Notes under the pieces: model-generated
Seen by the model: the letters and a program-made list of their open reading frames with translations, nothing else
Databases searched by the model: none
What the model was told of the DNA's origin: nothing
In this document: positions 32,298-47,843 of the stretch, piece by piece
Layout: the number at the start of each line of letters is the position of its first letter
Position numbering within the stretch: the first letter of the stretch is position 1
DNA from: an uncultured Candidatus Bathyarchaeia archaeon
GTDB taxonomy: Archaea > Thermoproteota > Bathyarchaeia > Bathyarchaeales > Bathyarchaeaceae
Length of the DNA: 64,000 nt
Direction of reading: 5' to 3'
NCBI GenBank assembly: GCA_964623205.1
Contig: CAZUQX010000007.1
Location: forward strand, 12,665 to 76,664
Made by a program: the position numbers and the translations under genes

Positions 32298-32317
32298 TTG
32301 TTGAAAACATCCAACTA
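32298..32317 (+). repeat. attL-like site: core TTGTTGAAAA + inner arm CATCCAACTA
   Basis: Read directly: 32298-32307 is the core and 32308-32317 is the arm. The arm is the exact reverse complement of 49129-49138. Confidence 0.65.
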
Positions 32318-32414
32318 TTTGTTTGATTTTCTGTTTGGGATTTCATCTCTTTCACCAAAACGGTTCTTAGGTATCTCTAAGCTTATTTAAATTATTCGAA
32401 AGGGCTTTTTACAA

Positions 32415-33785
32415 TTATTCTGCAGGTTCATAAGATTTCCAGAAATGGAGTGTGTTCCCTGCCTTCTTGATAATATCATTATATGTTAATACTTCCACAT
32501 TATGAAAGCTCTCTTTCAATAGCGTTAGTTTCTCTTTTTGAACTTTTGTTAGTCTTGTTCCAGAAAGTGCTCCTATTACGGCTATTCCCTTTGAATTATA
32601 ACCCAATGATGTTTGTTCAATATAATAATCAACAGCTTGATTTATACCATCGTATACTTTCTTTGATAACGTGCCATCCTTATTGAATATCGGGTCATTT
32701 GCTTCTTCAAGTTCGATTAAAACACATTTGTCTAATCCATCGATACGTTCAATTATGAAATCCGCATGTTTTCTTTTGCCGATTTTTGTGTCTCCTGTTA
32801 GTTTTCCATCTGGAGTAATGTCTGAAAGGATTTTCTTGTCGAAATATTCTATACCTAAAAGCCAATAATCTTTTGCTAGCAGTTTATGTATAGCTTTTTC
32901 ATCTTTTTTCACAGAATCTTGGTGTCTTTTAATTTGTTTTTTAAATTTCCTTAAACTTCTCTGCAGTTTTTCATATCTGTCCATCATTTTGGACATTTCT
33001 GGTAGTTTCTTAATTATTTTGTTCTGGTCTCTCCTTGATAATTTAGAAAGTTGTTTAATGAAAAGTCGAGATACTTTAGATTTTAGAAGTGAATTTAATA
33101 ATTCCCCAACCTCTTCTTCACCAAGTTTCTCTATCACTTCAATGAACGTTTTGAGTTGTATTTTTGGAGCTTTGGGTTTGAGTTTCACATACTCCTTAAT
33201 AATTTCTGTCCCTAACGGTGAGTGCTCCAAGGCTTTTTTCAATTTCATTTTTTGTTCGGCAGTCATTCTGTCAAATTCTTTAATCAGATTCTCCAAAATG
33301 TTGTAATATGAATTTTTCAGTTCATTAACCAATGCATTTGGGGATTTACCTTTAAAGAAATGCTGCGGAACTTTTTTAGAAAAATCACCCCAAATTTTAT
33401 GGGAATACTTATTTAGCCTTAATTCATTAACGGCAGAATCTATTTTCTTGCCGTATTTGACATAAACATCAAAATTAATTTTAACCCAATTTTTCCCATT
33501 TTCCGTGGTTTTATAATAGGGTGCAAAGTGTTTTCCCTTGAAAAAAAGCAATTCAAAATTTTCTAATCCATCATATTCCTTTTTCATGCAGCTTAACATG
33601 TGTCTCAATTTGGTGAAACCGTATTTAATCCAATTCTCTTTCTCTTCTTTTGAGGGTCTAAATGCAAAGTAAATTTCTTTCTCCTTCAAATCGTCATAAA
33701 ATCTCCATTGTGTGCCACAACAAAATTTGTCGATTACTTGAAATTCAGGTGATGCGGGAACGCTTTTTAATTGTTTATCAATCAT
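32415..33785 (-). CDS. Shedu-like (DUF4263-type PD-(D/E)xK nuclease) defence protein with long helical N-terminal region
   Basis: 456 aa. The C-terminal part reads KAIHKLLAKDYWLLGIEYFDKK...KRKHADFIIERIDGLDKCVLIELEEAN...INQAVDYY...IAVIG. This follows the DUF4263 pattern as I remember it (pwLlG...Dfl....vivE.K...Q...Y). Confidence 0.55.
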   Translation of the reverse strand: MIDKQLKSVPASPEFQVIDKFCCGTQWRFYDDLKEKEIYFAFRPSKEEKENWIKYGFTKLRHMLSCMKKEYDGLENFELLFFKGKHFAPYYKTTENGKNWVKINFDVYVKYGKKIDSAVNELRLNKYSHKIWGDFSKKVPQHFFKGKSPNALVNELKNSYYNILENLIKEFDRMTAEQKMKLKKALEHSPLGTEIIKEYVKLKPKAPKIQLKTFIEVIEKLGEEEVGELLNSLLKSKVSRLFIKQLSKLSRRDQNKIIKKLPEMSKMMDRYEKLQRSLRKFKKQIKRHQDSVKKDEKAIHKLLAKDYWLLGIEYFDKKILSDITPDGKLTGDTKIGKRKHADFIIERIDGLDKCVLIELEEANDPIFNKDGTLSKKVYDGINQAVDYYIEQTSLGYNSKGIAVIGALSGTRLTKVQKEKLTLLKESFHNVEVLTYNDIIKKAGNTLHFWKSYEPAE

Positions 33786-33829
33786 TTATGTCGGATTCCA
33801 TCTAAACTATCCAATCATTGTGAAGTGAC

Positions 33830-34342
33830 TCAACCACGATTTTTATCAACCTCGTATTCTGCCTCTCCCTCTTCGACTCCTTTCCTCGCCTTTTCATATG
33901 CTTCTCTGGGAATTTGAAGTGAATTCTGATTTAGTTCGTTTCTAAGACATGAAAATTCCTTCAGGATTTTAGTTAGTTTATCAATCGAGCTTTCATTAAC
34001 AATATCAATCTCTCGGAATATTCTCACTCTGTTTCTCAGCGAATTGTATTTGTTGCCAGCATCTTGATGCGAACAGGTTTTTTCATTGGGATTAAGAAAT
34101 GTAATAATTGCTGTTAGTGCAGCAACGACAATAGCCATGAAAGCAGTAATGATTTCATGATAGGAAAATTGTGTTAGGGCTGAGACTCCAGAAAGTGCAG
34201 CCAATACTACTGCGGGCAAACCCAAATATCGGTGAATATTTCGCCATTTGTTTGCAGCTTCAAAATGTCCTTTTGCCGAATATAGGCAATCTTCTTCTAT
34301 TCTTTTCGCCTCATCAACAATCTTTGCTTTCAGGTCTACCAT
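33830..34342 (-). CDS. SLATT-type 2TM effector-like protein
   Basis: 170 aa. An N-terminal helix (YSAKGHFEAANKW) is followed by two TM helices (LGLPAVVLAALSGVSAL / ITAFMAIVVAALTAIITFL) and a helical tail (HQDAGNKYNSLRNRVRIF). Its start lies 11 nt after the stop of the upstream NTase gene, with GAGGT between them. Confidence 0.6.
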   Translation of the reverse strand: MVDLKAKIVDEAKRIEEDCLYSAKGHFEAANKWRNIHRYLGLPAVVLAALSGVSALTQFSYHEIITAFMAIVVAALTAIITFLNPNEKTCSHQDAGNKYNSLRNRVRIFREIDIVNESSIDKLTKILKEFSCLRNELNQNSLQIPREAYEKARKGVEEGEAEYEVDKNRG

Positions 34343-34353
34343 TTTACTACCTC

Positions 34354-35286
34354 TTAATAATATGAAGGAAAATGAGAATCAAAAACTAGGTTCCACCAGT
34401 AGAAAGCGTCAGAAATCTTTTCATTTTTTTCGGTTTCTCTCGCCTTATTTGCACGAATCAAAGCAGTTTGCAATTTTGAATATGCCTCTTGTTTTTGTGC
34501 TTCAGTTTGGCAAGCAGGAATAACCCCTGATATTCCCATTGGGTCTTGAATTCCTGCAAGACTATTACTATACAATTGGCTGAGGATTTTTCTAACATCA
34601 TATGAATACTCAATATAATCCTCACCAGAGGCGTATTTTGTTACACGTAATTCAAGGTAAAAAGATGAAATAGGAACGTTTCTAAAATACTTCCAAGCCT
34701 TTAAGAATCTAACAAGAGGTTTAACCTTGTAACCTTTCTCTTTATTAACATAAGTAACCCATGAATTATGGGCTTTTGGGGAAGAGTTCATCCATCCTCC
34801 ATTCCCATCGGGAATTTCGTAGATGTTATAGCCATTACTGCTTGTTTTGATGAAATCCGCAGGAACAACCTCAGTTGATTCTGAGGCATCTCTTCCAAAT
34901 GGAACCCAAACGGCAGGTGTTCTTACCGAAACGCCTGTATTTGGAAATCTAACATCAAGGGCATTCCGCATCTTACGAAGAGTTGTAAGGGAGTTTTCAT
35001 TTAAATTGCCTGATGGTATAACAGCGAAATAATCGACATCGCTATAACCACGAATACTGGTTGCATTCCCAAATGACCCTGTTTTGAAAAAATGTGTCAT
35101 TCCAAAGCTTGATACAAGACATGCTTTTATTGAATCACGATGTCCCTTTGCAGCCTCCGATTCTGTCAAAGTTGGCGTAAGACGACTATGAAATTCTTTA
35201 AATCCTTCTTCAACGGTCTTAGCCAAATCCTCACAACTCCGATAGTTTTTTCTTGAAGTAAAATATGAAGAATGGAACGCCACCAA
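34354..35286 (-). CDS. SMODS / CD-NTase-like minimal nucleotidyltransferase (putative second-messenger synthase); start uncertain
   Basis: TGSFGNATSIRGYSDVDYFAVIP (G-S...D-x-D), TEVVPADF (third acidic residue), W..SSPKAH and RFLKAWKYF...SSFYLEL. The ORF-track start is a TTG that overlaps the upstream small ORF. An alternative TTG at 35226 lies just after that ORF's stop. Confidence 0.65.
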   Translation of the reverse strand: MVAFHSSYFTSRKNYRSCEDLAKTVEEGFKEFHSRLTPTLTESEAAKGHRDSIKACLVSSFGMTHFFKTGSFGNATSIRGYSDVDYFAVIPSGNLNENSLTTLRKMRNALDVRFPNTGVSVRTPAVWVPFGRDASESTEVVPADFIKTSSNGYNIYEIPDGNGGWMNSSPKAHNSWVTYVNKEKGYKVKPLVRFLKAWKYFRNVPISSFYLELRVTKYASGEDYIEYSYDVRKILSQLYSNSLAGIQDPMGISGVIPACQTEAQKQEAYSKLQTALIRANKARETEKNEKISDAFYWWNLVFDSHFPSYY

Positions 35287-35431
35287 TTCCAGTAAAGATT
35301 ATCCTGAAAGTTTCGTTATTAAGATAGAGTAAGGAATCAATTACGCTGGCTGTTGCGTAAATCCCGATGATAGCGATTATTGGTATAACAAAGAAGTCTT
35401 TAATCGCCTTTTCAACTCTGTCTTCGCCCAT
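35231..35431 (-). CDS. 66-aa two-TM peptide, first gene of the cassette
   Basis: ATG at 35431 is preceded by GGAGGAG (complement of 35438-35444) with a 6-nt spacer. There are two hydrophobic helices (FFVIPIIAIIGIYATASVI, IIFTGIGGVPFFIFYF). Confidence 0.45.
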   Translation of the reverse strand: MGEDRVEKAIKDFFVIPIIAIIGIYATASVIDSLLYLNNETFRIIFTGIGGVPFFIFYFKKKLSEL

Positions 35432-35437
35432 GTAATT

Positions 35438-35485
35438 CTCCTCCTGATGATAGTTTGTTTAATATTTTGTAGCGATATATTTAAA
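35438..35485 (-). promoter_or_regulatory. SD (GGAGGAG) and TATA-like box (TTTAAATATAT on minus strand) upstream of the 4-gene cassette
   Basis: 35475-35485 ATATATTTAAA lies about 45-55 nt upstream of the ATG at 35431, inside a 187-bp AT-rich gap after the RM gene. Confidence 0.35.
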
Positions 35486-35618
35486 TGTTTGGACATAAAT
35501 ATTAAATTACTCTTTGTTATCAACTGGATTTTTGGTAATTGGCTTTTGAGTTAAACTACCCAAAGAAAAAGAAACATATGGAGAGAGTCAAATGAAACTG
35601 CTAACTCTGAAATGAAAA

Positions 35619-38345
35619 TCATAGATTTCCTTCGATAATCCTTTGCTCTTTCTCGGTTATTCCATAAATCTTGTAAACCAGCTCGTCAATTTGGCAGTTA
35701 ATTTTGTCCATTTCCTTCTCAAGTCTAGCCCGTTCATCTGTCATTTTGTCACCAATTTGGTTTACACGAGCTTTGAGAGACAGCATCCTATTAACAAGTT
35801 GTATTAATGTTTGTTCAGATTCTTGAGCAACTTTTATCGGAAGTTCTTCCAGAAACTTAGTTCTATACCTCAAATAGCCTCCACCCATATGCATACCACC
35901 AAATAATACAAAATAAACAAAAGAAACCAGTTTTGAATTGAGCAAGCCGAGAATATATTCTAATGAAGTGTTTTCATTTTTCAATACCCCAAAATAAACT
36001 CCGCCTTGTGGTATTCTCTTCTCATAATCCATGGTAGCAGTTATTCTTAACGCATCTTCAGCGATGACAATTTTTCTTTTTAAACTGTTTACATACCTTT
36101 TTGATGTTGTGCTTATGACTTTTTTTAAGTTATTTTTTGTTATATAGCTGCCTTTGCTAATTGAACTGTATCTATCGAATTGATATTGTTTCAAAATTTC
36201 GAAATCATTAACAATGTTCTCTTCTAATGTTGTTGGTATTCTTAGCCCTTCAGAAATCTTAAGGTATTTTGATAATTTATCGCATTTTCTCAGTAATTTT
36301 ATAACAATGTCAAATTGTTCTTGGCTAATATTAATTGGGAAGATTTTTGAAGGCAAAACTTCCAAATCCCTTCGTGTTAGCCAATAATTTACAAAATTTT
36401 TATTTAAGAATTCATCACGTGTTGATACCGAACCGATATTAATCCTTTTTACATTTTTTCCCTTTGTAAGAAAAAGAAGAACTGGATAATTTGCAGCCTC
36501 TTTAAAAATATCTAAATGGCTAACACTTATAATTGTGCAATGGCTTGAATTCTTTACAATAATTTCCCTCAGTTTTTCAGCAGAACTGGCAGCACAAAAT
36601 TTGTTCGGCAAGATGAAGCCACATTTCCCACCTTCTTGCAACCACTTGAAAACGCTTTCAATAAACAAATAGTAGATGTCGTATTTTCCATAAGCTGAAC
36701 TAAAAACATCTTTCCAATATGTTTTTTCAACAATTTTTAGGTTATCTACTCTAACATACGGTGGATTTCCGATAACAACATCAAATCCTCCTTCTTTCAT
36801 TATGTCATCGAATTCATCTTCCCATCGAAAAGCTATGTTGCCTGCAATATTTTCATCGTCAATTATCGAGTTTCCCCGCCTGATGCTTTCTTCCAGTAAT
36901 GGTAATCTATGTCCCTTCTCAGCTATTTTGAGTAATAGATTGAGTTGTGCAATTTCAACTGCCTGTTTGTCTAAATCGACACCAAAAATATTGTCTTGGA
37001 GAATTTTTGCCTTTTTTGTAAATGGAATATCAATTTTTTGTTTGTCCAACTGAGTTTGACTATAATCCTTGATATTTTTCTTATAATATTCATCGAAAAT
37101 ATCGAATGCTTTAATCAGGAAGCTACCTGAGCCACAAGCAGGGTCTAATACTCTAATTTCTTCTACGTTGACTTTCTTTTTTTCCAGAATTTTGCCTAGA
37201 GTATTCCTAACGATGTAATCAACGATGTAGGTTGGAGTGTAGTAAATTCCCTGTTCTTTTCTATGTATCCCATTTTTGGTGACTCTTGCTCTTTTTGCAG
37301 TCTTTTTCAAAATGTGACTTAAGTATTGCTCATAGATGTTACCTAAAACGTCAGCATCGATTACTGAAAAATCGTAAGAAATAGAGAAATACTTCTCTTT
37401 TGTGAAATACAACCCCTTTATTATTTCAGATAATATTTCGTTATCAATTTCTAGTTGGTCACACAAATGTTTAGTAAATATCTTGCTGTCATAGTGTTCA
37501 TCAAAGTAACTGAAAATCTCTCTGAGACCTTTTACTAATTTTCCTCTGCCTCTGCTTCTCCATTCCCTTAATTTTGAAATCAAAAGTTTTTCTTCAAGCT
37601 CTTTGTCTTCACAATTTCGAATAAAAATAAGCCTGTCTAAGATTCTTTGAACTGACTCGTCCAACTCTTCTTTTGACAACTTTTCTTTTACGTTTAATTT
37701 CGTTATGCTCTTTGTGAGCATTCTTCTATATTTTGTAAAGTCCTCAAGAAGTTGCTCATCTATGGATGCTTTCTTAGTCTTTTTACTCCGTCTTTCTGCT
37801 GTTTCATCTAACAAACCTTTTTCGAAACTTTCTTTCGACAAAAGCCATAATTCATCAAATCTTTCAAGAAAATCGTCATACGTGATGGTTGTAAAATGGC
37901 TCTGTAAATAGTTAGCTGCCTTCCACTCAGCATTAAGAATTTTCACAGCTTCAAAATCTGTAAGAACTGCCCATGTGCAACCTTTATGCCATGCATAGCT
38001 GATTGCCTGCTCAAAATACTCTTCTTTATCCAAATCTGCTTTTAGTGACTTTGCTTCTAGGTAGAATTTTGGAATTCCATCAATTCTGAAACCATAATCC
38101 ACACGCTTTTTAGAAATTGTTTCTTCGGCAGTAACCTCTTTGGAATCTTGAAAATTCCAACCTAGTGCACGAAATAAAGGTTGAATGAAACCAATTTTAG
38201 TCATCTCTTCATTGTATTCTTTGACTCTATTTTCCTCTACAACTTTGTTGTATTTTTCTACAAGTTCTGCGATTTCGCTTCGAGCTTTTTCTTTGTCCAT
38301 TGTGGATACTAATTTTGTGGTTTCGATTATAACTTTTTGGGGCAT
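35619..38345 (-). CDS. Type IIG restriction endonuclease / N6-adenine DNA methyltransferase fusion (Eco57I-like)
   Basis: 908 aa. The N-terminal PD-ExK nuclease is of HsdR-N type (VDYGFRIDG..FYLEAKS). Methyltransferase motifs are VLDPACGSGSFL (motif I) and VVIGNPPYV (motif IV). The C-terminal specificity region ends in KIYGITEKEQRIIE. Confidence 0.85.
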   Translation of the reverse strand: MPQKVIIETTKLVSTMDKEKARSEIAELVEKYNKVVEENRVKEYNEEMTKIGFIQPLFRALGWNFQDSKEVTAEETISKKRVDYGFRIDGIPKFYLEAKSLKADLDKEEYFEQAISYAWHKGCTWAVLTDFEAVKILNAEWKAANYLQSHFTTITYDDFLERFDELWLLSKESFEKGLLDETAERRSKKTKKASIDEQLLEDFTKYRRMLTKSITKLNVKEKLSKEELDESVQRILDRLIFIRNCEDKELEEKLLISKLREWRSRGRGKLVKGLREIFSYFDEHYDSKIFTKHLCDQLEIDNEILSEIIKGLYFTKEKYFSISYDFSVIDADVLGNIYEQYLSHILKKTAKRARVTKNGIHRKEQGIYYTPTYIVDYIVRNTLGKILEKKKVNVEEIRVLDPACGSGSFLIKAFDIFDEYYKKNIKDYSQTQLDKQKIDIPFTKKAKILQDNIFGVDLDKQAVEIAQLNLLLKIAEKGHRLPLLEESIRRGNSIIDDENIAGNIAFRWEDEFDDIMKEGGFDVVIGNPPYVRVDNLKIVEKTYWKDVFSSAYGKYDIYYLFIESVFKWLQEGGKCGFILPNKFCAASSAEKLREIIVKNSSHCTIISVSHLDIFKEAANYPVLLFLTKGKNVKRINIGSVSTRDEFLNKNFVNYWLTRRDLEVLPSKIFPINISQEQFDIVIKLLRKCDKLSKYLKISEGLRIPTTLEENIVNDFEILKQYQFDRYSSISKGSYITKNNLKKVISTTSKRYVNSLKRKIVIAEDALRITATMDYEKRIPQGGVYFGVLKNENTSLEYILGLLNSKLVSFVYFVLFGGMHMGGGYLRYRTKFLEELPIKVAQESEQTLIQLVNRMLSLKARVNQIGDKMTDERARLEKEMDKINCQIDELVYKIYGITEKEQRIIEGNL

Positions 38346-38747
38346 CTTAGTTAGTCACTTATCTCCCCTACCTTTTTTCGTTGAATCTGATTCTGCATAG
38401 CTATTCCAAAAATCATCTTTTGTTGGAAAGCGGTTTCAAAAGTGTTATTAAGATGGTCAAGTGCGATTATTTTGGGGGTTGACTGAGGATACTGCCTTCT
38501 TAGGAAGTGCATATATCACACCAACTCAGTCATTTCCCCCATATGAATAAGCATTTTCTGTAAAAATTCTCTGATTCTTTCGGTGTCCAGAAAATCGTCC
38601 TTATGTAGGCTTATGTAAATATCCATTTTTTGTGACTTTTTAAGATTTTTAGCGGTTAATTTTGACGAAAAACAAAAAATATTGGTTTTTTAGGCTTTAT
38701 GGATAGTTTTATATGCTGTTTGACCCTAGTTTCTTGCGGTGTGATGT

Positions 38748-39003
38748 ATGCAAAAGAAAAATAAGGGCAAAATTAGCGGAGCGTTGAGGCTGGTTTTTTT
38801 GCTATCTAGCCTCAAAGTTACGTTTCAAAAATTTTGGAGGGTCAAAGCTGTCTAGTTTTTCACGGAAGCATTACAGAGCCATAGCTGAGATAATCCGAAA
38901 CGCTGAAACAAAATATCAGGTAGCTCAAGATTTAGCTGAGATGTTCGCAGCAGATAACTACCGATTCGACTACCAGAAATTCTTCAAGGCTTGCAATTTG
39001 TAG
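38748..39003 (+). pseudogene. Small ORF interrupted by a +1 frame change at a T7 run (frameshifted gene, slippery site or sequencing artefact)
   Basis: The ATG at 38748 opens MQKKNKGKISGALRLVF... The run at 38794-38800 is TTTTTTT. The +1 frame continues without any ATG/GTG/TTG start as ...SSFSRKHYRAIAEIIRNAETKYQVAQDLAEMFAADNYRFDYQKFFKACNL, ending at TAG 39001-39003. Confidence 0.3.
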
Positions 39004-39013
39004 AGGCTTAAAA

Positions 39014-39169
39014 ATGAAGATGCAGATTTTCAAATACAAAGTTAACCGTAGTATGAAAAAGTGTCTGCTAATCGGCATCGAAAAACCAAACAAAGTTGTT
39101 CTGGTTCACATAGGAAAAGTGTTCAAACCCTTAGACGCACAGCGAATAATAGAGCAATGCAAAAGGTGA
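39014..39169 (+). CDS. 51-aa hypothetical protein (below ORF-track cutoff)
   Basis: My own translation: MKMQIFKYKVNRSMKKCLLIGIEKPNKVVLVHIGKVFKPLDAQRIIEQCKR. It ends 4 nt before the TTG start of the ATPase ORF. Confidence 0.3.
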   Translation: MKMQIFKYKVNRSMKKCLLIGIEKPNKVVLVHIGKVFKPLDAQRIIEQCKR

Positions 39170-39173
39170 AAAG

Positions 39174-40448
39174 TTGGTTACGCCAACCAGAGAGCAAATT
39201 ATAGCTTATGCTTTAGAAAAGTGGCACATGGACGAAGCAAGAATGGGCAATCCAGCCTTCGACATTGAACCCGAACTGAGCGAACTGAAAGAAGAGGGTT
39301 ATTTGAGTCTCGCACAATCTGAACTGATGCGAAACCCAAATCTTGACGAATGGGACGCATATAATGAACGCCTAGATAATCTTCAGAAAACTTTGGAAAA
39401 AGAGCAACAAAACGATGTTAATACAAAAACGGTATTAGATGACATCCTCAATTTTGACGATTTGCTTTTGATTGCCAATAAGGGACAGGGAAAAACAAAC
39501 GCTTTGAAGGTCATAAGCTCAGAATTGCGAAAAATTCCAGATACTAGGGTAATAATCTTTGAGACCTTCCCCAAATTCTGCCTAGAATTCGAGGCTATTC
39601 CCTTCATTAAAATACATGATACCGATGTAACAGAAACAGGGCATACGGTAGACATAGAGAGCTACTTCTTGAGACATGAAAGAGACTACACAGTAAAGCG
39701 GGGACACGAAATAAGAGAAGCTCTAGGCAAGAATAGGGACTTAATCTTCACGCTAGAAATAACCGATATTGAAAGAATCGCATTTTTCGTTTACAGCATT
39801 GTTCAATATTTCTACCGTAGGGCATACCTTCGATTATACAAAGGCTATGAGAAAAGAGAAAAGGTAGTTTTCGTTATCGAAGAATCGCAAAATGTCTTTG
39901 ATTCTAGCACAATTTCAAAGAAGCTCTTCAACAGATTGCGGAAAATTTTCTCTGAAGCTAGAAACTTGGATTTGCATTTTATCATGTGCAGTCAACGACT
40001 CCAAGACCTCAACACCAAGATAAGGGGAAGAACTCGTTTAATGTTGGGAAATGTAAGCCTAGACGACTACGAATTGAAAGTTAGACGGTTGCTCAGAAAT
40101 AGCAAACACAAAACTGACATACTAAACTTTGAAAGGGGAACCTTTCTTTATTCAGCTACGGACAAAATAATCAAATTCCCATTATTTGAGACCACAGAGA
40201 AACCCTATGAACTAAACTACAAAGCCGAACCAAAACAAAAAATTGAACCACAAGAAGAGATTAGACACATGAAAAGGAAAAAGCCGAGCCGATGGCAAAA
40301 GCTGAAAGGCTTCCTAAAATTCTGGTCTTGGGGATACGATATTCCAGAGTATCCAAAAGGAAACAGAATCAAAGAAAACAGCTTTGAGGACGAGGACGAA
40401 GAAGACACAGCTTTTGGCGTTCCCATCGATATGTTAGAAGAAGACTAG
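39174..40448 (+). CDS. P-loop NTPase (FtsK/HerA- or plasmid/virus packaging-like ATPase), acidic C-terminal tail
   Basis: 424 aa. Walker A LLIANKGQGKTN, Walker B KVVFVIEESQNVF, then HFIMCSQRLQDL. The C-terminus is EDEDEEDTAFGVPIDMLEED. Confidence 0.55.
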   Translation: MVTPTREQIIAYALEKWHMDEARMGNPAFDIEPELSELKEEGYLSLAQSELMRNPNLDEWDAYNERLDNLQKTLEKEQQNDVNTKTVLDDILNFDDLLLIANKGQGKTNALKVISSELRKIPDTRVIIFETFPKFCLEFEAIPFIKIHDTDVTETGHTVDIESYFLRHERDYTVKRGHEIREALGKNRDLIFTLEITDIERIAFFVYSIVQYFYRRAYLRLYKGYEKREKVVFVIEESQNVFDSSTISKKLFNRLRKIFSEARNLDLHFIMCSQRLQDLNTKIRGRTRLMLGNVSLDDYELKVRRLLRNSKHKTDILNFERGTFLYSATDKIIKFPLFETTEKPYELNYKAEPKQKIEPQEEIRHMKRKKPSRWQKLKGFLKFWSWGYDIPEYPKGNRIKENSFEDEDEEDTAFGVPIDMLEED

Positions 40449-40498
40449 CTAGTTAATTCTTGGTATGTATTGGCGGTTCATAACTTTAAAGACACTGT

Positions 40499-40729
40499 AT
40501 GAGATTTGATAGTATTATGAAAGCCAAGAAGCAAACTTCAAATCCATTACTTACGCAAACAAATCAATGTTGTAAGGGTTTTCTTCAGAATCAGGTAAAC
40601 GTTCTACAAGCTATAAGAAACACACTAGAAGAATACACTAAGGAAGAAGTCATAAAACACATTGACCAAATACTGAATTATTACGAACAAAAAATTGAAG
40701 AACTCCCCAAACCAAAGTCAACGACCTGA
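40499..40729 (+). CDS. Hypothetical 76-aa protein
   Basis: ORF only; no recognisable motif. Confidence 0.3.
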   Translation: MRFDSIMKAKKQTSNPLLTQTNQCCKGFLQNQVNVLQAIRNTLEEYTKEEVIKHIDQILNYYEQKIEELPKPKSTT

Positions 40730-41311
40730 ACTTGCGTTTTGGATTAGAATAAAGAAAATAAGCGATACTCCGAGTTTAAATCAAAAGTTTTAGTGCCATC
40801 ACAAATAACTAAACAGTATCGCTTAATCATCTCACATATCCCCACCCTCTTTCATTTTTTTGATTTTTTGAAAGCCTATCTCTAAAAATTGGCAACATAC
40901 CCGAAAACCACAAGCTAACCATTAATCCAACATTAGAGGCATTTTAACTGAGAAATATTCTATAAAAATACTCTATAAGAAATCTAGAGGATTCGAACAA
41001 AATTCTCTTGAAAAATAGCTTGAGCCTTAATGCTTTCTCAAAGACTCTCCAAAAATCCTAGCTTTAATTATATCCTTATGTGAGCTTATGAGGGGGGGGC
41101 TTTTTGTTTGTGTCTCTCATTTTTTCTTAAAAGAAGCTGTATCCTGCCCTCTCTTTCATAAATTCTAGTTATGTTCCAAGTCAGTTAATCTTATTTTCCG
41201 TCAATCAAAACTAAGCTATGGCATAGAATAAACTACAACCAGATACACAGCCCTTTTTCTTTGTTCCATAACTAATTTTTTTATCATGTGCTGAAATTTT
41301 TATTGTTGAAT

Positions 41312-41341
41312 TAGTTGGATGTTGTTAGTAAGTTCCAACAA
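41312..41341 (+). repeat. Internal degenerate attP-like site (24/30 identical to the attP reconstructed from the island ends)
   Basis: TAGTTGGATG-TTGTTAGTAA-GTTCCAACAA compared with the predicted TAGTTGGATG-TTGTTGAAAA-CATCCAACTA. A core-like TTGTTGAA also sits at 41303-41310. Confidence 0.5.
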
Positions 41342-41557
41342 AAAGTTGGGTTTTTTATCCTGTGATGGGTTTAGTTAATCGTCATTTATTGTTAAAATTG
41401 ATAGATTTTTCGCATGTTTTGTAGCAATAATGCAACAATTTAATGAGAAAACACTCCCAGAACGTCCTGACCCCTTCTACTAACTGCATAAACAATACAC
41501 AAAACATAGTCTATCGGTTTCGGTTGGAGTAAAAAATATGTTCAAATTGGCTAGGGC

Positions 41558-41586
41558 ATATACATTGTCACGGTATATACATTGTC
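41558..41586 (+). promoter_or_regulatory. Tandem ATATACATTGTC repeats (17-bp period) about 100 bp upstream of the TIR-like gene
   Basis: 41558-41569 and 41575-41586 are identical 12-mers. They are followed by TTTGTAG repeats. Confidence 0.4.
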
Positions 41587-41683
41587 GTTTTTTTGTAGCG
41601 TTTCTTTGTAGTGTGTAGTTTATTGGTTTTCGTTAGGACAATAATCTTATGAATTGCATTGTCCCAATTGTAACTGATTCAGA

Positions 41684-42583
41684 ATGCCTTTCTATCACGT
41701 TAGGATAACCAAGAAAAGCAGAACAACAAACGACAGGCTTGCATTAGACCTCTCCAAAGATGAATTGATGGCGAGAATCGTTAATCCTTTCTTAGAAGGA
41801 AAAACATTCATGTGTGGTGGGGAGCCGATTGACCCTTTTGATGTTGCTGTAATTCACATCAATGAAACAGAAAGAAAATCTGCTGACCTAATTCCTGAAA
41901 TCAAAGCTGAGAGAGCAAGGTCTAGAGTTGCTGTGGCAATTTCTAATGAGTGGTATGTTACTAAGAAGGGGAAAGATGTGACTAGAGAGTTGATTACTCA
42001 TCCTCCAAAAAAGCAAGAAACTGTGAAAGTTACTGTTGAACTGAGTAAAAACGTGTTTATTGTTCATGGCAGAGACCATGAGCCAATGAAAGAGCTAAAA
42101 ACAATGCTCTTGGAATTTGGTCTCAACCCTATTGTTCTTCATGAACAACCAAGCGGAAGCAGAACAATTGTAGAAAAATTAGAGAAATATTCTGATGTTG
42201 GTTACGCTTTTGTGATTTTAACTCCAGAAGATGTTGGATGTTTGAAAAATAAAATTAGGGAAAAGATAAACTCAGTTCTTAAACTTACTGAAGACAAAAA
42301 ACCAAGGTCTTTGATAGCTGACATTCATTCTATAGGAGTAATACGTGCTTATATGCATGAAATGAATGCATATCTTAGTCCTAGAGCCCGTCAAAATGTT
42401 GTTTTGGAGTTTGGCTATTTCATGGGCTTGTTGAGTCGTGACCGAGTTTGTTGTTTGCTTAAAGGAGACGTAGAAAAGCCCTCAGACATGCACGGAATAG
42501 TATACGTTCCTTTCAAGGATTCTGTTGAAGAAAGACGCAGTATGATAATTAAGGAACTTAAAGAAGCTGGTTTTGAACTTTAA
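41684..42583 (+). CDS. TIR-like domain protein (Cap12/PycTIR-type predicted nucleotide-binding/NADase effector) with unknown about 120-aa N-terminal domain
   Basis: The C-terminal half reads NVFIVHGRDHEPMKELKTMLLEFGLNPIVLHEQ...YAFVILTPEDVG...ARQNVVLEFGYFMGLLSRDRVCCLLKGDVEKPSDMHGIVYV. This matches my memory of the TIR-like family pattern (fIvHG.d...a.vllTpDD...aRqNV.fElGyf...PSD..G..y). Confidence 0.65.
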   Translation: MPFYHVRITKKSRTTNDRLALDLSKDELMARIVNPFLEGKTFMCGGEPIDPFDVAVIHINETERKSADLIPEIKAERARSRVAVAISNEWYVTKKGKDVTRELITHPPKKQETVKVTVELSKNVFIVHGRDHEPMKELKTMLLEFGLNPIVLHEQPSGSRTIVEKLEKYSDVGYAFVILTPEDVGCLKNKIREKINSVLKLTEDKKPRSLIADIHSIGVIRAYMHEMNAYLSPRARQNVVLEFGYFMGLLSRDRVCCLLKGDVEKPSDMHGIVYVPFKDSVEERRSMIIKELKEAGFEL

Positions 42584-42589
42584 AAGTGA

Positions 42590-42871
42590 TTAGGCTTTTC
42601 CCCTTGAAATTAATCTTCTTGCTATGCCTATCGTGTTTAAGGCTACATTTTCCGTGCACAAAAATTCGTCCATGAAATCGTCTTTTACTTCTGCTATCAG
42701 TTCTTGAACCTGTTCTATTAGTATCCACTCTTCTGGGTCTGAGATGTTTTGCTTCTCGGAAATGATTCCATATTTGTTTTCGTATTCATCCATGAGTTTC
42801 AGGTAATTTTTTATTGTGCCCCTATGGTTCGCAAGTATCCATTCGATTTTTTTTCGTCTAGTCTGTGGCAT
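42590..42871 (-). CDS. Hypothetical 93-aa protein (last gene of a 3-gene minus-strand unit)
   Basis: ORF only. It starts 12 nt downstream of the 42884 gene. Confidence 0.4.
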   Translation of the reverse strand: MPQTRRKKIEWILANHRGTIKNYLKLMDEYENKYGIISEKQNISDPEEWILIEQVQELIAEVKDDFMDEFLCTENVALNTIGIARRLISRGKA

Positions 42872-42883
42872 ATCATTTTTTCC

Positions 42884-43234
42884 TCATGGTATTTTTGGCG
42901 ATAGTTGTTTTCTTAATTTGCATAACTTTTCAATTGTTTCTCGGTCATGTGTTCGGATTAGGCTCTTGTCTATGAGGGCAACTAAGCCATGTTTCAAAAT
43001 CTCTTCTAAGCTGTATGCGTCATAGAACTTTTTGATTTCATTTGCGTAAATGAGTGTTTCAGTTGAAATTCTGATTGATGTGCCCGATTTTTTGGCTAAC
43101 TTTAGCGGTTCTGTGGCGAACTCGACCTTTTCTGGTTTAACTAAATTCAAAGCTTCTAGCGGAATTTCCAGTTTGAGAGGAACTGACTTTTTGCCTTTCA
43201 GTCGCTTATCGTCAGGTTTTATCAGTTCTGTCAT
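42884..43234 (-). CDS. Hypothetical 116-aa protein
   Basis: Its start overlaps the stop of the upstream gene by 4 nt (43231-43234), which suggests translational coupling. Confidence 0.4.
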   Translation of the reverse strand: MTELIKPDDKRLKGKKSVPLKLEIPLEALNLVKPEKVEFATEPLKLAKKSGTSIRISTETLIYANEIKKFYDAYSLEEILKHGLVALIDKSLIRTHDRETIEKLCKLRKQLSPKIP

Positions 43235-44022
43235 GGTCTCAATCCTCTCTGAATGATTGTTGTTCCGCTTTTTGCTTCAATCAATGCATTGTAGGCTTTG
43301 ACTTCCTCAACATATTTTTTGAATTCTTTAAACAGTTTTTCTGCCTTTTGTATCGTTTTTTCGTTGTATGCTATTGTCTCCTTTTCTTCTTTGGTTATTC
43401 GCTTATTGTATTGCATAATTTTCTTATTTTGTTCCTCAACTTTTTTGAAAAATTGTTTCGCTTCTTTGATTGTTTTAAGAGTTTCAGATTTTTTGTTTTC
43501 AGTTTCTTCAACAAATTTGAGAACTTTTTTTAAAAGCTCTTTGACCTGTTTTTTTCGACTCTTCTCAAGAGCCAAAATCTTATCCTGTTTCTCTCTGACC
43601 CGTTGCATCCAATCATGAAAATTTTGGATTAGGTCTTTTCTTGTTTCAGCGTCCTTTCTGGTTTGTTCCAGCAAACAGTTCTGAAACACATCTACAAAGG
43701 TTTTGAAATTTTGTAATTGGTCTAAGTATTTGGCACGGATTTCCTCATTCAATTCTCTGGTTTCTTGTTCGTCTTCTGCGTGTTGTTGCCTTAAAGCATC
43801 AATTTCGTCCAAAATTATTGACTCAATATCTTCTAACTGTTCTTTCATGGTTTCCTGAAAACTTTTTTTCCGTAGGCTTCTCTGTCCAGCTAACCAACTT
43901 GAAGCCCTCCCCAAATCAACCTCTTCCGATTCGACTGATTCGTTTTCTTCTTCAATTTCTTCCGAATCGATTTCTTCGCTTTTCAATTTTTTTAGGTAAG
44001 CCTCCATCTTTTTGTTCGTCAA
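43231..44022 (-). CDS. 263-aa highly charged coiled-coil protein
   Basis: An acidic N-terminus (EEIDSEEIEEENESVESEE) is followed by E/K/Q-rich heptad-like sequence throughout. Confidence 0.5.
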   Translation of the reverse strand: MTNKKMEAYLKKLKSEEIDSEEIEEENESVESEEVDLGRASSWLAGQRSLRKKSFQETMKEQLEDIESIILDEIDALRQQHAEDEQETRELNEEIRAKYLDQLQNFKTFVDVFQNCLLEQTRKDAETRKDLIQNFHDWMQRVREKQDKILALEKSRKKQVKELLKKVLKFVEETENKKSETLKTIKEAKQFFKKVEEQNKKIMQYNKRITKEEKETIAYNEKTIQKAEKLFKEFKKYVEEVKAYNALIEAKSGTTIIQRGLRP

Positions 44023-44053
44023 ATTGAATTCCTCATTCTTTGCATGCAGTTTG

Positions 44054-44082
44054 TATACATATATTATACATAATTATACATA
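44054..44082. promoter_or_regulatory. Three direct TATACATA boxes at 11/10-bp spacing in a divergent promoter region
   Basis: The boxes are at 44054-44061, 44065-44072 and 44075-44082. CACGTGAT at 44227-44234 and the 10-bp palindrome ATCACGTGAT at 44268-44277 lie downstream. Confidence 0.4.
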
Positions 44083-44229
44083 TAAGTTTTATTGTTAATA
44101 CAAGAAGAATATATGTGTGAATCAACATAATATATTGTGTTTCATAGACACCAGAATTTGAAACGTTTCTAGGTAAAAAGGGAACATCCAAATTCCTTCT
44201 TTTCTTTTAACAAAAATTCTTATCAGCAC

Positions 44230-45108
44230 GTGATTAAAACATTTTTTGTCAAATATTTTTTTATTTCATCACGTGATAACAAAAAAAGCATAAACGATAC
44301 CTTTATAACGAACTTAACGAATACATTTCATGATAAAATGGATTGGCGGAACATGACCGATATTGAAGAAAAAGCTGTTGGAATTGCTGAAATTATTTGG
44401 CATGACCGATATTTTCGAAAAGGATTCTTTAGACAATTTTACGATTGCCTTCATGAAGCCCTTAAGATTTGTGACCAAAAATATCCTCAAAGTCAGTTGG
44501 ATTCTTTCAGGATTGCTGTTCCGAAATGGCGATTCAAACGGGAAATCCAATTAGCTAATGATTGTTATCGACTTTTCAAAATCCATAATTCCCTAGAAGA
44601 TAGAAAGAAAATGAGACATACGAGATATTTTTGGTTCATGGACGGAATTTCTAAGAAGCGAACTGAGCTTGATTGTTGGGATACGGTTAGAGTTTTTGAC
44701 GGTCAAATTTTGCCGTGTGGTTCCTGTTGCATAATTGAATCTCCCCATTTTATGCAACTGAAAGCAAAGAAAACGGATACATTAACTCAATTAATTGTTC
44801 ATGAAATCGTAGATGCCTTAGAATCAAAGGATTGCTGTAGGTTACAAGAAGAAACCAAGAAACGAAACTCGTGTGCTAATGGCTATAAATCCCATGAAAA
44901 ACACCACGACCAAATCATACTCGCAGAGCAATGGCTCTATAACCGATTCCATAAAAAGAGACCCGATTACTACACACCATTCGAAGACGAACAGTTACGA
45001 ATCCTATATCCGAAAGCCTCTAGAGAGACACTTGAAAAAGAATTGAAATTCCGTTCTTGGAAGTCTATCCGCTCAAGAGCTTACGACTTGGGAATAAAAA
45101 GAATTTGA
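44230..45108 (+). CDS. Hypothetical protein with C-terminal Myb/SANT-like helix region; true start probably the ATG at 44338
   Basis: The ORF-track GTG start runs through the CACGTGAT palindromes. The first Met (MDWRNMTDIEEK) is codon 37. The C-terminus is LRILYPKASRETLEKELKFRSWKSIRSRAYDLGI. Confidence 0.45.
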   Translation: MIKTFFVKYFFISSRDNKKSINDTFITNLTNTFHDKMDWRNMTDIEEKAVGIAEIIWHDRYFRKGFFRQFYDCLHEALKICDQKYPQSQLDSFRIAVPKWRFKREIQLANDCYRLFKIHNSLEDRKKMRHTRYFWFMDGISKKRTELDCWDTVRVFDGQILPCGSCCIIESPHFMQLKAKKTDTLTQLIVHEIVDALESKDCCRLQEETKKRNSCANGYKSHEKHHDQIILAEQWLYNRFHKKRPDYYTPFEDEQLRILYPKASRETLEKELKFRSWKSIRSRAYDLGIKRI

Positions 45109-45193
45109 GAATCTTCAATCTAGCCTTTATATATCAAAACGCATGGGGAAACGCATGATTCCAAAATTAGCCAAAAAGGAGGTGTGACAAATA

Positions 45194-46288
45194 TTGACAC
45201 AATCCAGTAAGTCAGTTAATCAATCCAAAAATACGCATGATAATAACCATAAATCACAATATACTATAAAAAAGTCCAAACATCAAACTAGACCTACCCT
45301 TAGACCTCTCCAAACTTATAAAAACATGATAGAAAAACATTGTAAACCCTTTAATTTGGCTTGGTTGGATTCTGGAATTGATTATCTAATAACCTGTATC
45401 GACAACTACGATTTTACGCATGATTTTTCTTTGACCCAGAAGGAAATCCCAGAACTTAAAGATGTGCTACGGCTCATGATTGTTAGAGGGATGTATGTCA
45501 GGTCTCTTGACGTGGTAAATAAACTTAAAATCTCTAGAAGAACCGCACAAAAATATCTTCTAAGACTTTGTAAATTAAGATGGTGTATGCGTGGTCGTTG
45601 GGTAACGTATAACGACATAAATCCATTCCTGCAATTTCTGATTTACCTTTCTCCAAAAAAGATGGGGCAGCTCATACATTTCTTCGCTCCTAGGCAGGTC
45701 GATTTGTTGAACCTCTTATCATACTCACTCTTGGAAGCTATAGATGAAAAAGTTAATGATGTCAAATTCATTTGGAGTCAAAAAGAACCAGATTTTGGCA
45801 ATGACTATTTTCCGTCCCTTCAGCATATTGGAAAATTCTATCCATATTTCAACGGAACGGTTCAAATTAAAGCCGAAACAGAAAGCCGAGATTATTATTC
45901 GACCCTTCCGTATAACATCCATTGGACGGGAAGGAATTCTCACATTACCCTTCCAATTCCCTTCAAATTCTATGGAGTTCAAGATGTTGGATACTCATCC
46001 AAAATTAACAAGCTGAAAGTCCATTTCGACAATTCGATAACAGTTGGGATTCCTTTAGGGTCTGCCAGTTATTCAAGTCGAAAATTACTAAATGAATGGG
46101 GACTAAAGCATTGGAGCGATATGGCAAATAGCTTTATGAACAAATACTGGAAAAACGAATATGTAGAGACCTTTAATTTCCAAACCCATGAAGAGATAAT
46201 AAAGAATAGATTACTCTACAAAGCAATCCCGATTAAACAGGTATCACAAAAGACATTTCTCTTAAAGCAATGTCTAGCTGAGATATAA
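45194..46288 (+). CDS. Hypothetical 364-aa protein with putative wHTH (possible replication/partition-type function)
   Basis: LKISRRTAQKYLLRLCKLRW is an HTH-like stretch. There are no enzymatic motifs. Confidence 0.4.
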   Translation: MTQSSKSVNQSKNTHDNNHKSQYTIKKSKHQTRPTLRPLQTYKNMIEKHCKPFNLAWLDSGIDYLITCIDNYDFTHDFSLTQKEIPELKDVLRLMIVRGMYVRSLDVVNKLKISRRTAQKYLLRLCKLRWCMRGRWVTYNDINPFLQFLIYLSPKKMGQLIHFFAPRQVDLLNLLSYSLLEAIDEKVNDVKFIWSQKEPDFGNDYFPSLQHIGKFYPYFNGTVQIKAETESRDYYSTLPYNIHWTGRNSHITLPIPFKFYGVQDVGYSSKINKLKVHFDNSITVGIPLGSASYSSRKLLNEWGLKHWSDMANSFMNKYWKNEYVETFNFQTHEEIIKNRLLYKAIPIKQVSQKTFLLKQCLAEI

Positions 46289-46389
46289 GTTCATTTTCTA
46301 TTCAAAAACCACTCTTTCTCAATTTCATTATGCGATATTGTAAACAAAATGTAAAAACTTATAAGTAAGTTTATACATATATTTATTAG

Positions 46390-46638
46390 ATGATAAAAAT
46401 GCAGCATAAATATGCATTCATAAGAATAAGAAAAGAAACAAAGGAAAAGCTTGATACATGGGCAAAAATTTGTGACAAGAAATTGATTAACATGCTAGAT
46501 GAAATCATAGACGCTTATCGGGACACTATTCTAATCAGCAACATCAATCGTTTACTAAACAGTCCAAACGCAGACGATGTTTTCTATGTCGCTAACGAAG
46601 TCGCTAAATCAATCATTAAGAGGGATAACAATGACTGA
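46390..46638 (+). CDS. Small possible ribbon-helix-helix protein
   Basis: AFIRIRKETKEKLDTWAKICDKKLINMLDEIIDAY has a beta-strand plus two-helix pattern. A TATACATA box at 46372-46379 suggests a leaderless start at ATG 46399. Confidence 0.4.
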   Translation: MIKMQHKYAFIRIRKETKEKLDTWAKICDKKLINMLDEIIDAYRDTILISNINRLLNSPNADDVFYVANEVAKSIIKRDNND

Positions 46639-47827: not shown

Positions 47828-47843
47828 AAAAAGTGGAAGAAGA

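Follow-up and report, generated by a model that had tools for sequence, protein, structure and literature searches.

A probable two-gene type I CBASS with a SLATT_4 effector on a mobile defence island of a Bathyarchaeum-like archaeon

Membrane proteins, SLATT4 among them, are the most abundant effector class of CBASS, and SLATT4 and SLATT6 are among the commonest individual classes (PMC12480259). The closest described systems are the type I operons EcCdnF04-SLATT6 and EcCdnF05-SLATT6, which defend E. coli with a protection of at least 10,000-fold (bioRxiv 10.1101/2023.05.21.541620). They consist of a cyclase and a SLATT protein, harbor neither Cap2/Cap3 nor HORMA/TRIP13, and their effector is an all-helical protein with two transmembrane segments (2TM). 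In Bathyarchaeia, CBASS has already been counted in 16 of 367 MAGs (PMC10848311). Other small membrane effectors, of the Cap15 / 2TM-beta type found in CBASS and Panoptes, kill by disruption of the inner membrane under cyclic-nucleotide control (PMC12657230). SLATT domains are also found in reverse transcriptase (RT) defence systems (DRT9/DRT10 and the UG/Abi RT-associated systems), where they are paired with a reverse transcriptase and its non-coding RNA. On the cyclase side, the closest solved structure to the enzyme described here is that of Pseudomonas aeruginosa CdnD (PaCdnD; 6p82, 6p8u and 6p8j), the cyclase of a type III CBASS, an enzyme under the control of HORMA and TRIP13 proteins that acts together with the nuclease NucC.

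The window analyzed here is a stretch of 64,000 nucleotides from a Bathyarchaeia genome. On its minus strand lie, in this order, the genes of a 66-aa 2TM peptide, a 290-aa nucleotidyltransferase and a 170-aa 2TM protein (Table 1). An initial annotation, made from the letters and open reading frames, had proposed an archaeal CBASS-like cassette, and the sequence features on which it relied were all recovered in place. These include the AT-rich gap of 187 nt ahead of the peptide gene (35432-35618, GC 0.283), the strong Shine-Dalgarno-like (SD) motif before the peptide ATG, and a GAGGT inside the 11-nt spacer that precedes the third gene. The TATA-like box is likewise present, as the octamer TTTAAATA, and fits the consensus TTTAWATA, but it is not enriched across the window (6 occurrences against 7.7 expected); as this count is not above chance, its position alone is suggestive, and it is retained as a candidate promoter of the peptide-cyclase-SLATT unit. 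An oligo-T tract (35574-35562, minus strand) lies after the stop of the upstream restriction-modification (R-M) gene and before TTTAAATA. No tRNA genes or Rfam families were found within the window, indicating that the island described below is not tRNA-targeted and that the unit has no attached riboswitch or ncRNA. SD-like motifs are uncommon in the window, where 6 of 37 long ORFs are preceded by one.

Table 1. Features of the cyclase-SLATT_4 locus and of the island that carries it (positions in the window)
Feature	Position	Strand	Remarks
TTTAAATA, archaeal TATA-box-like octamer	35478..35485	-	~47 nt upstream of peptide ATG
GGAGGAG, Shine-Dalgarno-like motif	35438..35444	-	6 nt before ATG 35431
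66-aa 2TM membrane protein gene	35231..35431	-	Conserved unannotated family
CD-NTase (SMODS) cyclase gene, 290 aa	34354..35226	-	TTG start, 4 nt past peptide stop
SLATT_4 2TM effector gene, 170 aa	33830..34342	-	11 nt after cyclase stop
SLATT TM1	Residues 39-57 (34228-34172)	-	Hydropathy
SLATT TM2	Residues 64-82 (34153-34097)	-	Hydropathy
Shedu SduA-type nuclease gene	32415..33785	-	44 nt downstream of SLATT, same strand
Type IIG R-M enzyme gene	35619..38345	-	Upstream neighbor, separate system
PDC-S35/Cap12-TIR gene	41684-42583		In island
Integrase-like gene	47844-49124		In island
Low-GC mobile defence island, 16.8 kb	32308..49148	.	Carries the cassette; GC, absence in relative, repeats
Direct repeat TTGTTGAAAA	32298-32307 and 49139-49148		Island ends
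Inverted 12-mers	32306-32317 and 49129-49140		Island ends

The second gene encodes the enzyme of the system. Its motifs GSFGNATSIRGYSDVDYF, TEVVPADF and RFLKAWKYF..SSFYLEL, from which a SMODS-type nucleotidyltransferase had been called, are all present. The longest ORF starts at TTG 35286, encodes 310 aa and overlaps the peptide gene; the family profile alignment begins at residue 22 (PADLOC model positions 2-287), homologues are 288-294 aa long and the NCBI-derived protein has 290 aa, which places the start not at TTG 35286 but at TTG 35226, 4 nt after the TGA stop of the peptide gene (35233-35231). Profile searches bear out the SMODS call, with 47.9 bits against Pfam SMODS (cut-off 26.5) and 5.1e-116 against the PADLOC Cyclase profile PDLC00776 over positions 2-287 of 287. 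The score against NCBIfam CBASS_cyclase_b (NF041117) is 119.4 bits, under the equivalog cut-off of 200; by this measure the cyclase is related to the curated subfamily but falls outside it. The AlphaFold (AF2) model (pLDDT 90.1, pTM 0.85) gave the outcome expected for such an enzyme, the 50 best Foldseek matches in the PDB all being CD-NTases (CdnD, CdnC, CdnB, DncV, CdnE), with 6p8u in first place (TM 0.80). In a PDB sequence search PaCdnD (6p82) was matched over residues 3-287 (E 9e-17) with its catalytic residues aligned. The predicted catalytic residues of the window cyclase, G50-S51, D63 (35040-35038), D65 (35034-35032) and D124 (34857-34855), correspond in that alignment, as G50-S51, D63-V-D65 and D124, to those of PaCdnD (PDB 6p8j being its D62N/D64N mutant), and G50, S51, D63 and D65 are invariant across 35 cyclase homologues. 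Sequence and model thus agree on a SMODS/CD-NTase of cGAS/DncV-like fold with a predicted pol-beta-type GS / DxD / D active site, the same as that of PaCdnD. Readings of the enzyme as an MNT/KNT, CCA-adding or poly(A) polymerase protein were rejected, no such structure being among the top fold matches, and the scores for MTPAP-like (Pfam, 16 bits) and cca_archaeal (TIGR, 11.7 bits) were both far below cut-off. PaCdnD and the window cyclase are only 22-23% identical, so that the nucleotide product of PaCdnD is not transferable to the window enzyme, and no genes for HORMA, TRIP13 or NucC are present among the window neighbors scanned.

The third protein was identified in the initial annotation as a SLATT 2TM effector, and it scores above the SLATT_4 cut-offs of both NCBIfam (144.3 bits, cut-off 55) and Pfam (34.1 bits, cut-off 27), with 3.8e-66 against the PADLOC 2TM Effector profile PDLC00712. 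The assignments of the proteins to their families stand well clear of chance (E values 1e-12 to 1e-116). It consists of an N-terminal helix, two TMs, recovered as two hydropathy stretches, and a charged tail predicted to be helical, the charged flanks holding 24 K+R and 24 D+E. Its single-sequence AF2 model reached a pLDDT of 44, too low to be of use, and a PDB sequence search returned ryanodine-receptor matches at chance level only (E of at least 0.03). The SLATT proteins of the RT defence systems belong to the same domain superfamily, and the PADLOC profile RTasSLATT (PDLC03811) matches at 4.4e-18, far behind the CBASS 2TM profile; the partner here is a CD-NTase instead of a reverse transcriptase with its RNA. 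Cap15 / 2TM-beta effectors resemble the window protein in their small size, in being membrane effectors and in the TM hairpin at their N-terminus, but they sense the nucleotide by a C-terminal beta-barrel, whereas the tail of this SLATT_4 protein is predicted to be all-helical, and no Cap15-type profile matches it. The two are analogous, not homologous. Inverse signaling of the Panoptes type was also rejected, as the Panoptes effector is Cap15-like (beta-barrel) and not a SLATT protein.

The cyclase-then-SLATT_4 order, whose conservation elsewhere had been put forward as a check, recurs both in bacteria and in several lineages of archaea. SLATT_4 orthologues lie directly 3' of the cyclase in L001, L003, L006, L015, L054/55 and L057-59, and on its other side in L035 and L036. 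Cyclase and SLATT identities to the window proteins are 73/75% (L054), 69/61% (L057) and 66/60% (L003), and 65/55% (L001), 60/52% (L006) and 56/44% (L015) at the more distant loci; over these six independent loci the two proteins diverge in step. Most of the remaining relatives (most of L002-L038) are S_4TM-coupled operons, whose cyclases are orthologous, with a full-length identity of 50-64%, and whose two genes follow each other in the same order across short spacers; their effector is a Pfam S_4TM protein of ~300 aa (E 1e-75 to 1e-80), in contrast to the 170-aa SLATT_4 of the window, whose cyclase belongs to a minority branch paired with SLATT_4. A CdnD12-4TM operon, reportedly studied in E. 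coli, is offered as a comparison for the S_4TM-coupled operons only.

No Cap2/Cap3 (E1/E2/JAB), HORMA/TRIP13 or other CBASS accessory genes were found among the five adjacent proteins scanned, and the other island ORFs scanned gave no CBASS accessory match either. We classify the locus as a type I CBASS, made of cyclase and effector only, and of an already catalogued kind. Both proteins are matched end to end by 2023 PADLOC profiles, so the pair is covered by the profiles of a standard defence annotator. The rarity and novelty claimed for it at first were overstated: SLATT effectors had been called poorly characterized and such systems rarely described in archaea, and both statements go too far in view of the effector abundance, the E. 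coli protection data and the Bathyarchaeia counts cited above. Compared with the SLATT6 operons, the window differs in its Bathyarchaeia host, in an effector that is SLATT_4 and not SLATT6, in a cyclase whose closest solved relative is CdnD (clade D) where the tested operons use CdnF, and in the small unrelated 2TM gene 4 nt upstream.

The pair lies in an island of GC 0.33-0.39, against 0.43-0.48 outside, which is bounded by repeats (Table 1) and has no counterpart in Ca. Bathyarchaeum sp. CP070820.1, where an HDAC-like and a 166-aa gene enclose the empty site. The archaeal origin assumed at the outset is borne out by an ArgRS 91% identical to that of Ca. Bathyarchaeum sp., and the host is a Bathyarchaeum relative. 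An identical copy of the locus occurs in Logan contig L039 (run SRR14802572), over 7,221 nt, and being identical to the window it provides no divergence information. Two other defence genes flank the unit. The Shedu gene (Pfam SduA_C 1.6e-11, 45 bits for a cut-off of 27; PADLOC SduA 1.2e-8) is a separate defence system, possibly co-transcribed with SLATT, and no oligo-T run is found in the 44-nt spacer between them. The R-M enzyme matches Pfam Eco57I (5.7e-41), N6_Mtase and TaqI_C, and PADLOC REase_MTase_IIG (3.4e-131). A link of either gene to the CBASS was rejected, since neither adjoins CBASS in L001-L038. Altogether, we consider it very probable that the cyclase and SLATT_4 genes form a two-gene type I CBASS that was horizontally acquired on a mobile defence island of a Bathyarchaeum-like archaeon.

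The first gene raises a different question. As initially described, it encodes 66 aa, and its two hydrophobic segments span residues 13-31 and 41-59. It has no match to any Pfam, NCBIfam, PADLOC or PHROG family, and a word-indexed search retrieved only the peptide itself, as if the ORF were spurious. This reading was overturned by an exhaustive HMMER scan, which recovered 36 representative clusters (at 50% identity) that are 40-59% identical to the peptide (E<=1e-3). Moreover, metagenome contigs searched with a six-sequence peptide alignment yielded four loci; the metagenome relatives are 63-75% identical, and dN/dS against them is 0.09-0.15, which indicates a genuine protein under purifying selection. 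Its homologues elsewhere carry GGAG, GGGA or GAGG 6-10 nt before their starts, mostly TTG.

The initial annotation had suggested that this peptide might be an immunity, regulatory or co-pore subunit, and a first alternative to a two-gene system is a three-component variant, in which the CBASS has taken the 66-aa protein into its service, be it as an immunity/antitoxin subunit restraining SLATT, as a second component of the pore or as a tether that holds the cyclase at the membrane. The peptide is indeed a real protein under selection, has two TMs like the effector, and is encoded inside the mobile island and not in the host backbone; its stop and the cyclase start are 4 nt apart, and no other gene of the unit has a strong SD. 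In the gene call of a distant cyclase homologue (P0117, in L060), moreover, an unrelated 2TM stretch is added in frame at the N-terminus; this extension may be a gene-calling artefact, as AAGGAGA and an internal TTG start lie at the canonical cyclase N-terminus, and it is not a peptide homologue (4 bits against the peptide-family HMM). The comparative data speak against recruitment. The peptide was found in 0 of 46 related cyclase loci (L001-L038 and L053-L060, by tblastn and by the family HMM on six-frame translations), and it is also absent beside the closest cyclase relatives, at 77%, 73% and 69% identity. Conversely, no cyclase or SLATT gene lies near the peptide homologues in 10 other, independent contexts (L040-L051), where the peptide gene is the sole gene in common with the window. 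Adjacency to the cyclase, which the initial annotation had proposed to examine across archaeal MAGs, thus recurs nowhere among the 46 and 10 loci, making the peptide a locus-specific neighbor and not a regular CBASS component. It belongs to an independent conserved archaeal family of small membrane proteins, and its gene is probably co-transcribed with the cyclase-SLATT pair at this locus. The 4-nt junction could still reflect a functional link hidden from the comparative data if very recent, as a single recent recruitment would escape the tests used here; we regard the three-component variant as very improbable. The same low credence covers the wider proposal that the peptide was captured as a third CBASS subunit gating or insulating the pore that SLATT would form in a membrane of ether lipids, or that a +1 slip tethers the cyclase.

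A second alternative, which we hold to be very doubtful, is that a recently transferred bacterial-type CBASS is carried as inert cargo, either weakly expressed in this archaeon or without function there. Cyclase homologues at 60-77% identity are mostly bacterial where the source names an organism, and GC3 is 0.28-0.29, far under the overall GC of the host. In addition, the cyclase TTG has no SD of its own and relies on upstream translation, which makes the expression level uncertain. However, both ORFs are intact and keep every catalytic and family-invariant residue, intact cyclase-SLATT_4 pairs are also found in MAGs of Thermoplasmatales, Halobacteria and Bathyarchaeota, run SRR14802572 yielded the identical copy on assembly, and promoter-like box, SD and translational coupling are all in place. 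Finally, slippage by +1 during translation or transcription at the A6 run (AAG AAA AAA C) near the 3' end of the peptide gene, giving a 2TM peptide-cyclase fusion and hence a membrane-anchored CD-NTase, is extremely unlikely: the cyclase is read in the +1 frame of the peptide gene, which is open from TTG 35286 across the run, and the gene call of P0117 joins a 2TM part to a cyclase, but the C-terminus (...YFKKKLSEL-stop) is shared by standalone homologues (...YFKKKLSKL, ...YFKRKMSEL), so that the stop is native and the A-run a conserved KKK motif, 20 open codons are expected by chance about 1 time in 4 in AT-rich DNA (base-composition estimate), and the A6 run recurs unchanged in the independent assembly.

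For the preferred two-gene type I CBASS, the protein families suggest the following course of events. Virus infection would activate the cyclase, which would make a cyclic oligonucleotide through its GS / D63xD65 / D124 active site. The target of the nucleotide signal would be the helical parts of SLATT_4 that lie in the cytoplasm; the effector would then oligomerize and breach the membrane, and the infected cell would die before virus release, by abortive infection. Nucleotide sensing by a SLATT protein has, to our knowledge, been shown for no CBASS, and we know of no cultured pair of a Bathyarchaeia member and its virus. In this scheme, the peptide gene would supply the TATA-like box and the strong SD at the locus and, through the 4-nt stop-start junction, would probably feed ribosomes to the TTG-started cyclase.

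The locus thus adds one more archaeal case of a catalogued defence system, and its main value lies in correct annotation. It also exposes a conserved and unannotated family of ~66-aa 2TM proteins that word-indexed searches miss completely. The cyclase-SLATT_4 module, 55-77% identical in bacteria and in Thermoplasmatales, Halobacteria and Bathyarchaeia, implies transfer across domains, raising the question of whether one small helical effector may disrupt both ester-lipid and ether-lipid membranes.

By the usual CBASS classification, the sequence evidence assigns the locus to type I CBASS, with a membrane effector of the SLATT4 class (PMC12480259). Its three ORFs lie in the same direction on the minus strand within 33830-35431 and encode a small peptide with two transmembrane (2TM) stretches (gene 1), a CD-NTase cyclase (gene 2) and a SLATT_4 protein (gene 3). 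An ORF and motif check recovered all the sequence features and motifs quoted in the initial annotation. The 187-nt upstream gap (35432-35618) has a GC content of 0.283 and carries an oligo-T tract directly past the stop of the upstream gene. It also contains the octamer TTTAAATA, found six times in the window versus 7.7 expected, i.e. not above chance, so that a promoter role would be favored by position alone. In its longest form the gene 2 ORF would run from TTG 35286 and so overlap gene 1; the real start is placed at TTG 35226, leaving 4 nt between it and the gene 1 stop, because the PADLOC profile alignment begins at residue 22 of the long ORF, homologs nearly all have 288-294 aa, and the NCBI-derived protein has 290 aa. 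Between the gene 2 stop and the gene 3 start lie 11 nt containing GAGGT.

Coordinates of the genes, upstream signals and island features
Feature	Position	Strand	Remarks
10-nt direct repeat TTGTTGAAAA	32298-32307 and 49139-49148		flanks island 32298-49148
Inverted 12-mers	32306-32317 and 49129-49140		island ends
Third copy of right end, 15 nt	41312-41326		within island
Shedu SduA-type gene	32415-33785	-	SduA_C 1.6e-11; 44 nt downstream of SLATT gene
Gene 3 (SLATT_4)	34342 to 33830	-	170 aa, ATG start
Gene 2 (cyclase)	35226 to 34354	-	290 aa, predicted TTG start
Gene 1 (2TM peptide)	35431 to 35231	-	66 aa, ATG start
GGAGGAG (SD)	35444-35438	-	gene 1 ATG 6 nt downstream
Octamer TTTAAATA	35485-35478	-	in upstream gap, ~47 nt ahead of gene 1 ATG
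P-loop ATPase-like protein, 424 aa	39174-40448	+	weak: AAA 2e-3 (below cut-off), PADLOC mad8 1.9e-6
PDC-S35 protein, 299 aa	41684-42583	+	CAP12/Pycsar-effector TIR PF10137 1.3e-32; PADLOC candidate system PDC-S35 1.3e-62

Gene 2 codes for a SMODS-type nucleotidyltransferase, as initially annotated. It scores 47.9 bits against Pfam SMODS (curated cut-off 26.5) and matches the entire PADLOC CBASS cyclase profile PDLC00776 (E 5.1e-116; a profile without curated cut-off). With 119 bits it stays under the curated cut-off of 200 for NCBIfam CBASS_cyclase_b, and is therefore related to this curated subfamily but outside its membership. The nearest solved protein is Pseudomonas aeruginosa CdnD (6p82/6p8u; E 9e-17, residues 3-287), at 23% identity, a distance at which the nucleotide product is not transferable. 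The active site is intact: G50-S51, D63-x-D65 and D124 align with the catalytic residues of this enzyme, and G50, S51, D63 and D65 are invariant in a 35-homolog alignment. The AlphaFold2 model, for which an alignment of 35 homologs served as input, has a pLDDT of 90.1, and a Foldseek comparison with the PDB gave CD-NTases exclusively among the top 50 hits (CdnD, CdnC, CdnB, DncV, CdnE), led by 6p8u (TM 0.80). An MNT/KNT or CCA-type enzyme is ruled out by the SMODS match and these structural matches.

The identification of gene 3 as a SLATT 2TM effector likewise held, with scores above both curated SLATT_4 cut-offs (NCBIfam, 144.3 bits versus 55; Pfam, 34.1 bits versus 27) and a match to the PADLOC CBASS 2TM effector profile PDLC00712 (E 3.8e-66; without curated cut-off). 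Hydropathy places two adjoining transmembrane stretches at residues 39-57 and 64-82, preceded by a charged N-terminal helix and followed by a tail that is also charged. No solved relative was found by sequence, and a single-sequence model (pLDDT 44) was too low for use.

Close homologs of the cyclase number about 2,000, the best 120 of these being 58-78% identical; in species-representative genomes the cyclase family is spread over many bacterial phyla and is also present in MAGs labeled Thermoplasmatales, Halobacteria, Methanoregula and Bathyarchaeota. The pairing with the effector is conserved elsewhere: a SLATT_4 ortholog of 170-180 aa lies directly behind the cyclase at four of the cyclase-centered loci (L001, L003, L006, L015) and ahead of it at two (L035, L036), and most of the other loci have a Pfam S_4TM effector of ~300 aa behind the cyclase. 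The nearest metagenomic cyclases, 73% and 69% identical, are each immediately followed by SLATT_4. Relative to the window, sequence identity declines in parallel for cyclase and SLATT (73/75, 69/61, 66/60, 65/55, 60/52 and 56/44%), and both genes therefore travel and evolve as a single module. Profile scans of the proteins adjoining the cassette detected no CBASS accessory genes.

The gene 1 peptide represents a conserved family of small 2TM proteins that lacks annotation. A word-indexed protein search returned no homologs and missed the entire family; HMMER, run exhaustively over 1.84 billion representatives clustered at 50% identity, recovered 36 clusters at E<=1e-3 (six at E<=1e-10), 40-59% identical to the peptide and mostly of 60-110 aa, with the pattern F.V.P..L.G.Y....I(D/E)S.L....F..IFTG.GG.P....YFKKK. 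Relatives at four metagenome loci are 63-75% identical, with dN/dS of 0.09-0.15 and synonymous sites near saturation, and most homologs have a TTG start with GGAG, GGGA or GAGG 6-10 nt ahead. This conservation, the dN/dS values and the SD-like motifs together mark gene 1 as a real, translated gene. Profile scans of Pfam, NCBIfam, PADLOC and PHROGs gave no entry for the family. Neighbors of the homologs include an F420-dependent oxidoreductase, LonB, AIM24, an integrase-like gene and Alba, and the Alba and LonB neighbors suggest that the family is archaeal. On one of these contigs (L051), a GC-rich stretch at ~1300-2750 with no convincing ORF adjoins the Alba gene and is probably a structured RNA gene.

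The peptide had been proposed as a possible additional CBASS component, and here the initial annotation, right on cyclase and SLATT, found no support for its sole new-looking feature. A family profile HMM run on six-frame translations of all retrieved loci detected the peptide gene at none of the 46 cyclase-centered loci, and none of ten independent peptide contexts (L040-L051) has a cyclase or SLATT gene; the peptide gene is all that these contexts share with the window, with no conserved neighbor. These distributions argue against gene 1 as a CBASS part and point to a standalone small gene. The most economical reading is that it supplies expression signals to the cyclase: it would bring the promoter-like box and the sole strong SD at this locus, and the 4-nt stop-start junction would give translational coupling for the TTG-started cyclase. 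Recruitment of the peptide as a third subunit or membrane tether seems improbable. A slip on the A6 run (AAG AAA AAA C), which is very unlikely, would fuse the 2TM peptide to the cyclase, whose +1 frame is open through this run in the window, but the peptide end (...KKKLSEL-stop) matches that of standalone relatives and the run is the conserved KKK motif of the family.

The gene call for another cyclase, P0117 (L060, 217-1335; 61% identical), includes 85 additional in-frame residues at the N-terminus, an extension bearing two hydrophobic helices, which the family HMM rules out as a member of the peptide family. The extension may be an over-extended gene call, since AAGGAGA and a TTG start are present at the canonical cyclase N-terminus; P0117 thus represents an over-long call or else a CD-NTase isoform anchored in the membrane. 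Downstream, a partial ORF resembles in its N-terminal sequence the S_4TM effectors of other loci.

The cassette lies in a mobile defense island. The ArgRS (50260-52206) shares 91% identity with its counterpart in Candidatus Bathyarchaeum sp., and its remaining named matches are all from Bathyarchaeota. The Ca. Bathyarchaeum sp. genome CP070820.1 shows the order FBPase, HDAC-like gene, 166-aa gene, AsnC, ArgRS. At the syntenic site the window carries an insertion of 16.8 kb, absent from CP070820.1, that separates the HDAC-like gene from the 166-aa homolog and has a GC content of 0.33-0.39 versus 0.43-0.48 outside. An integrase-like gene is present at the right end, no tRNA gene was found at the junctions, and the third right-end copy suggests two elements inserted in tandem. 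The cargo comprises a type IIG R-M enzyme, the peptide with CBASS, a Shedu SduA and a Cap12/Pycsar-TIR protein (PADLOC PDC-S35). The spacer between the SLATT and Shedu genes has no oligo-T run, and both systems may therefore share a transcript from a promoter upstream of the peptide; the N-terminal 290 residues of SduA have no family match, and Shedu linkage was not seen at L001-L038. The PDC-S35 gene lies 6 kb from CBASS on the opposite strand, and two homologs lie 2-3 kb from a related CBASS in a Poribacteria genome (L017). The P-loop ATPase-like gene and the ORFs at 42590-47827, which have no family match, might be unknown defense genes or else the element's own backbone for replication or packaging. 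An independent assembly (L039; Logan SRR14802572_15617, 17,687 nt) shows no difference from the window in the 7,221 nt compared and by extrapolation spans the island almost exactly, from 32 nt past the left junction to ~0.8 kb past the right. Such ends would be expected where the assembly graph breaks at the borders of the island, if the population mixes island-bearing and island-free genomes.

The initial annotation overestimated the rarity of such systems. The most abundant class of CBASS effectors is described as membrane proteins, SLATT4 and SLATT6 among them (PMC12480259), and type I operons whose effector is SLATT6 gave strong protection in E. coli (10.1101/2023.05.21.541620). Counts of CBASS have been published for Asgard archaea (PMC11291487) and for Bathyarchaeia, with 16 of 367 MAGs positive (PMC10848311). 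The gene 2 and gene 3 proteins are moreover covered end to end by existing PADLOC profiles, and the locus therefore belongs to an already known kind. By analogy with established CBASS, infection would activate the cyclase, which would make a cyclic oligonucleotide, and SLATT_4 would respond by oligomerizing, collapsing the membrane and aborting the infection.
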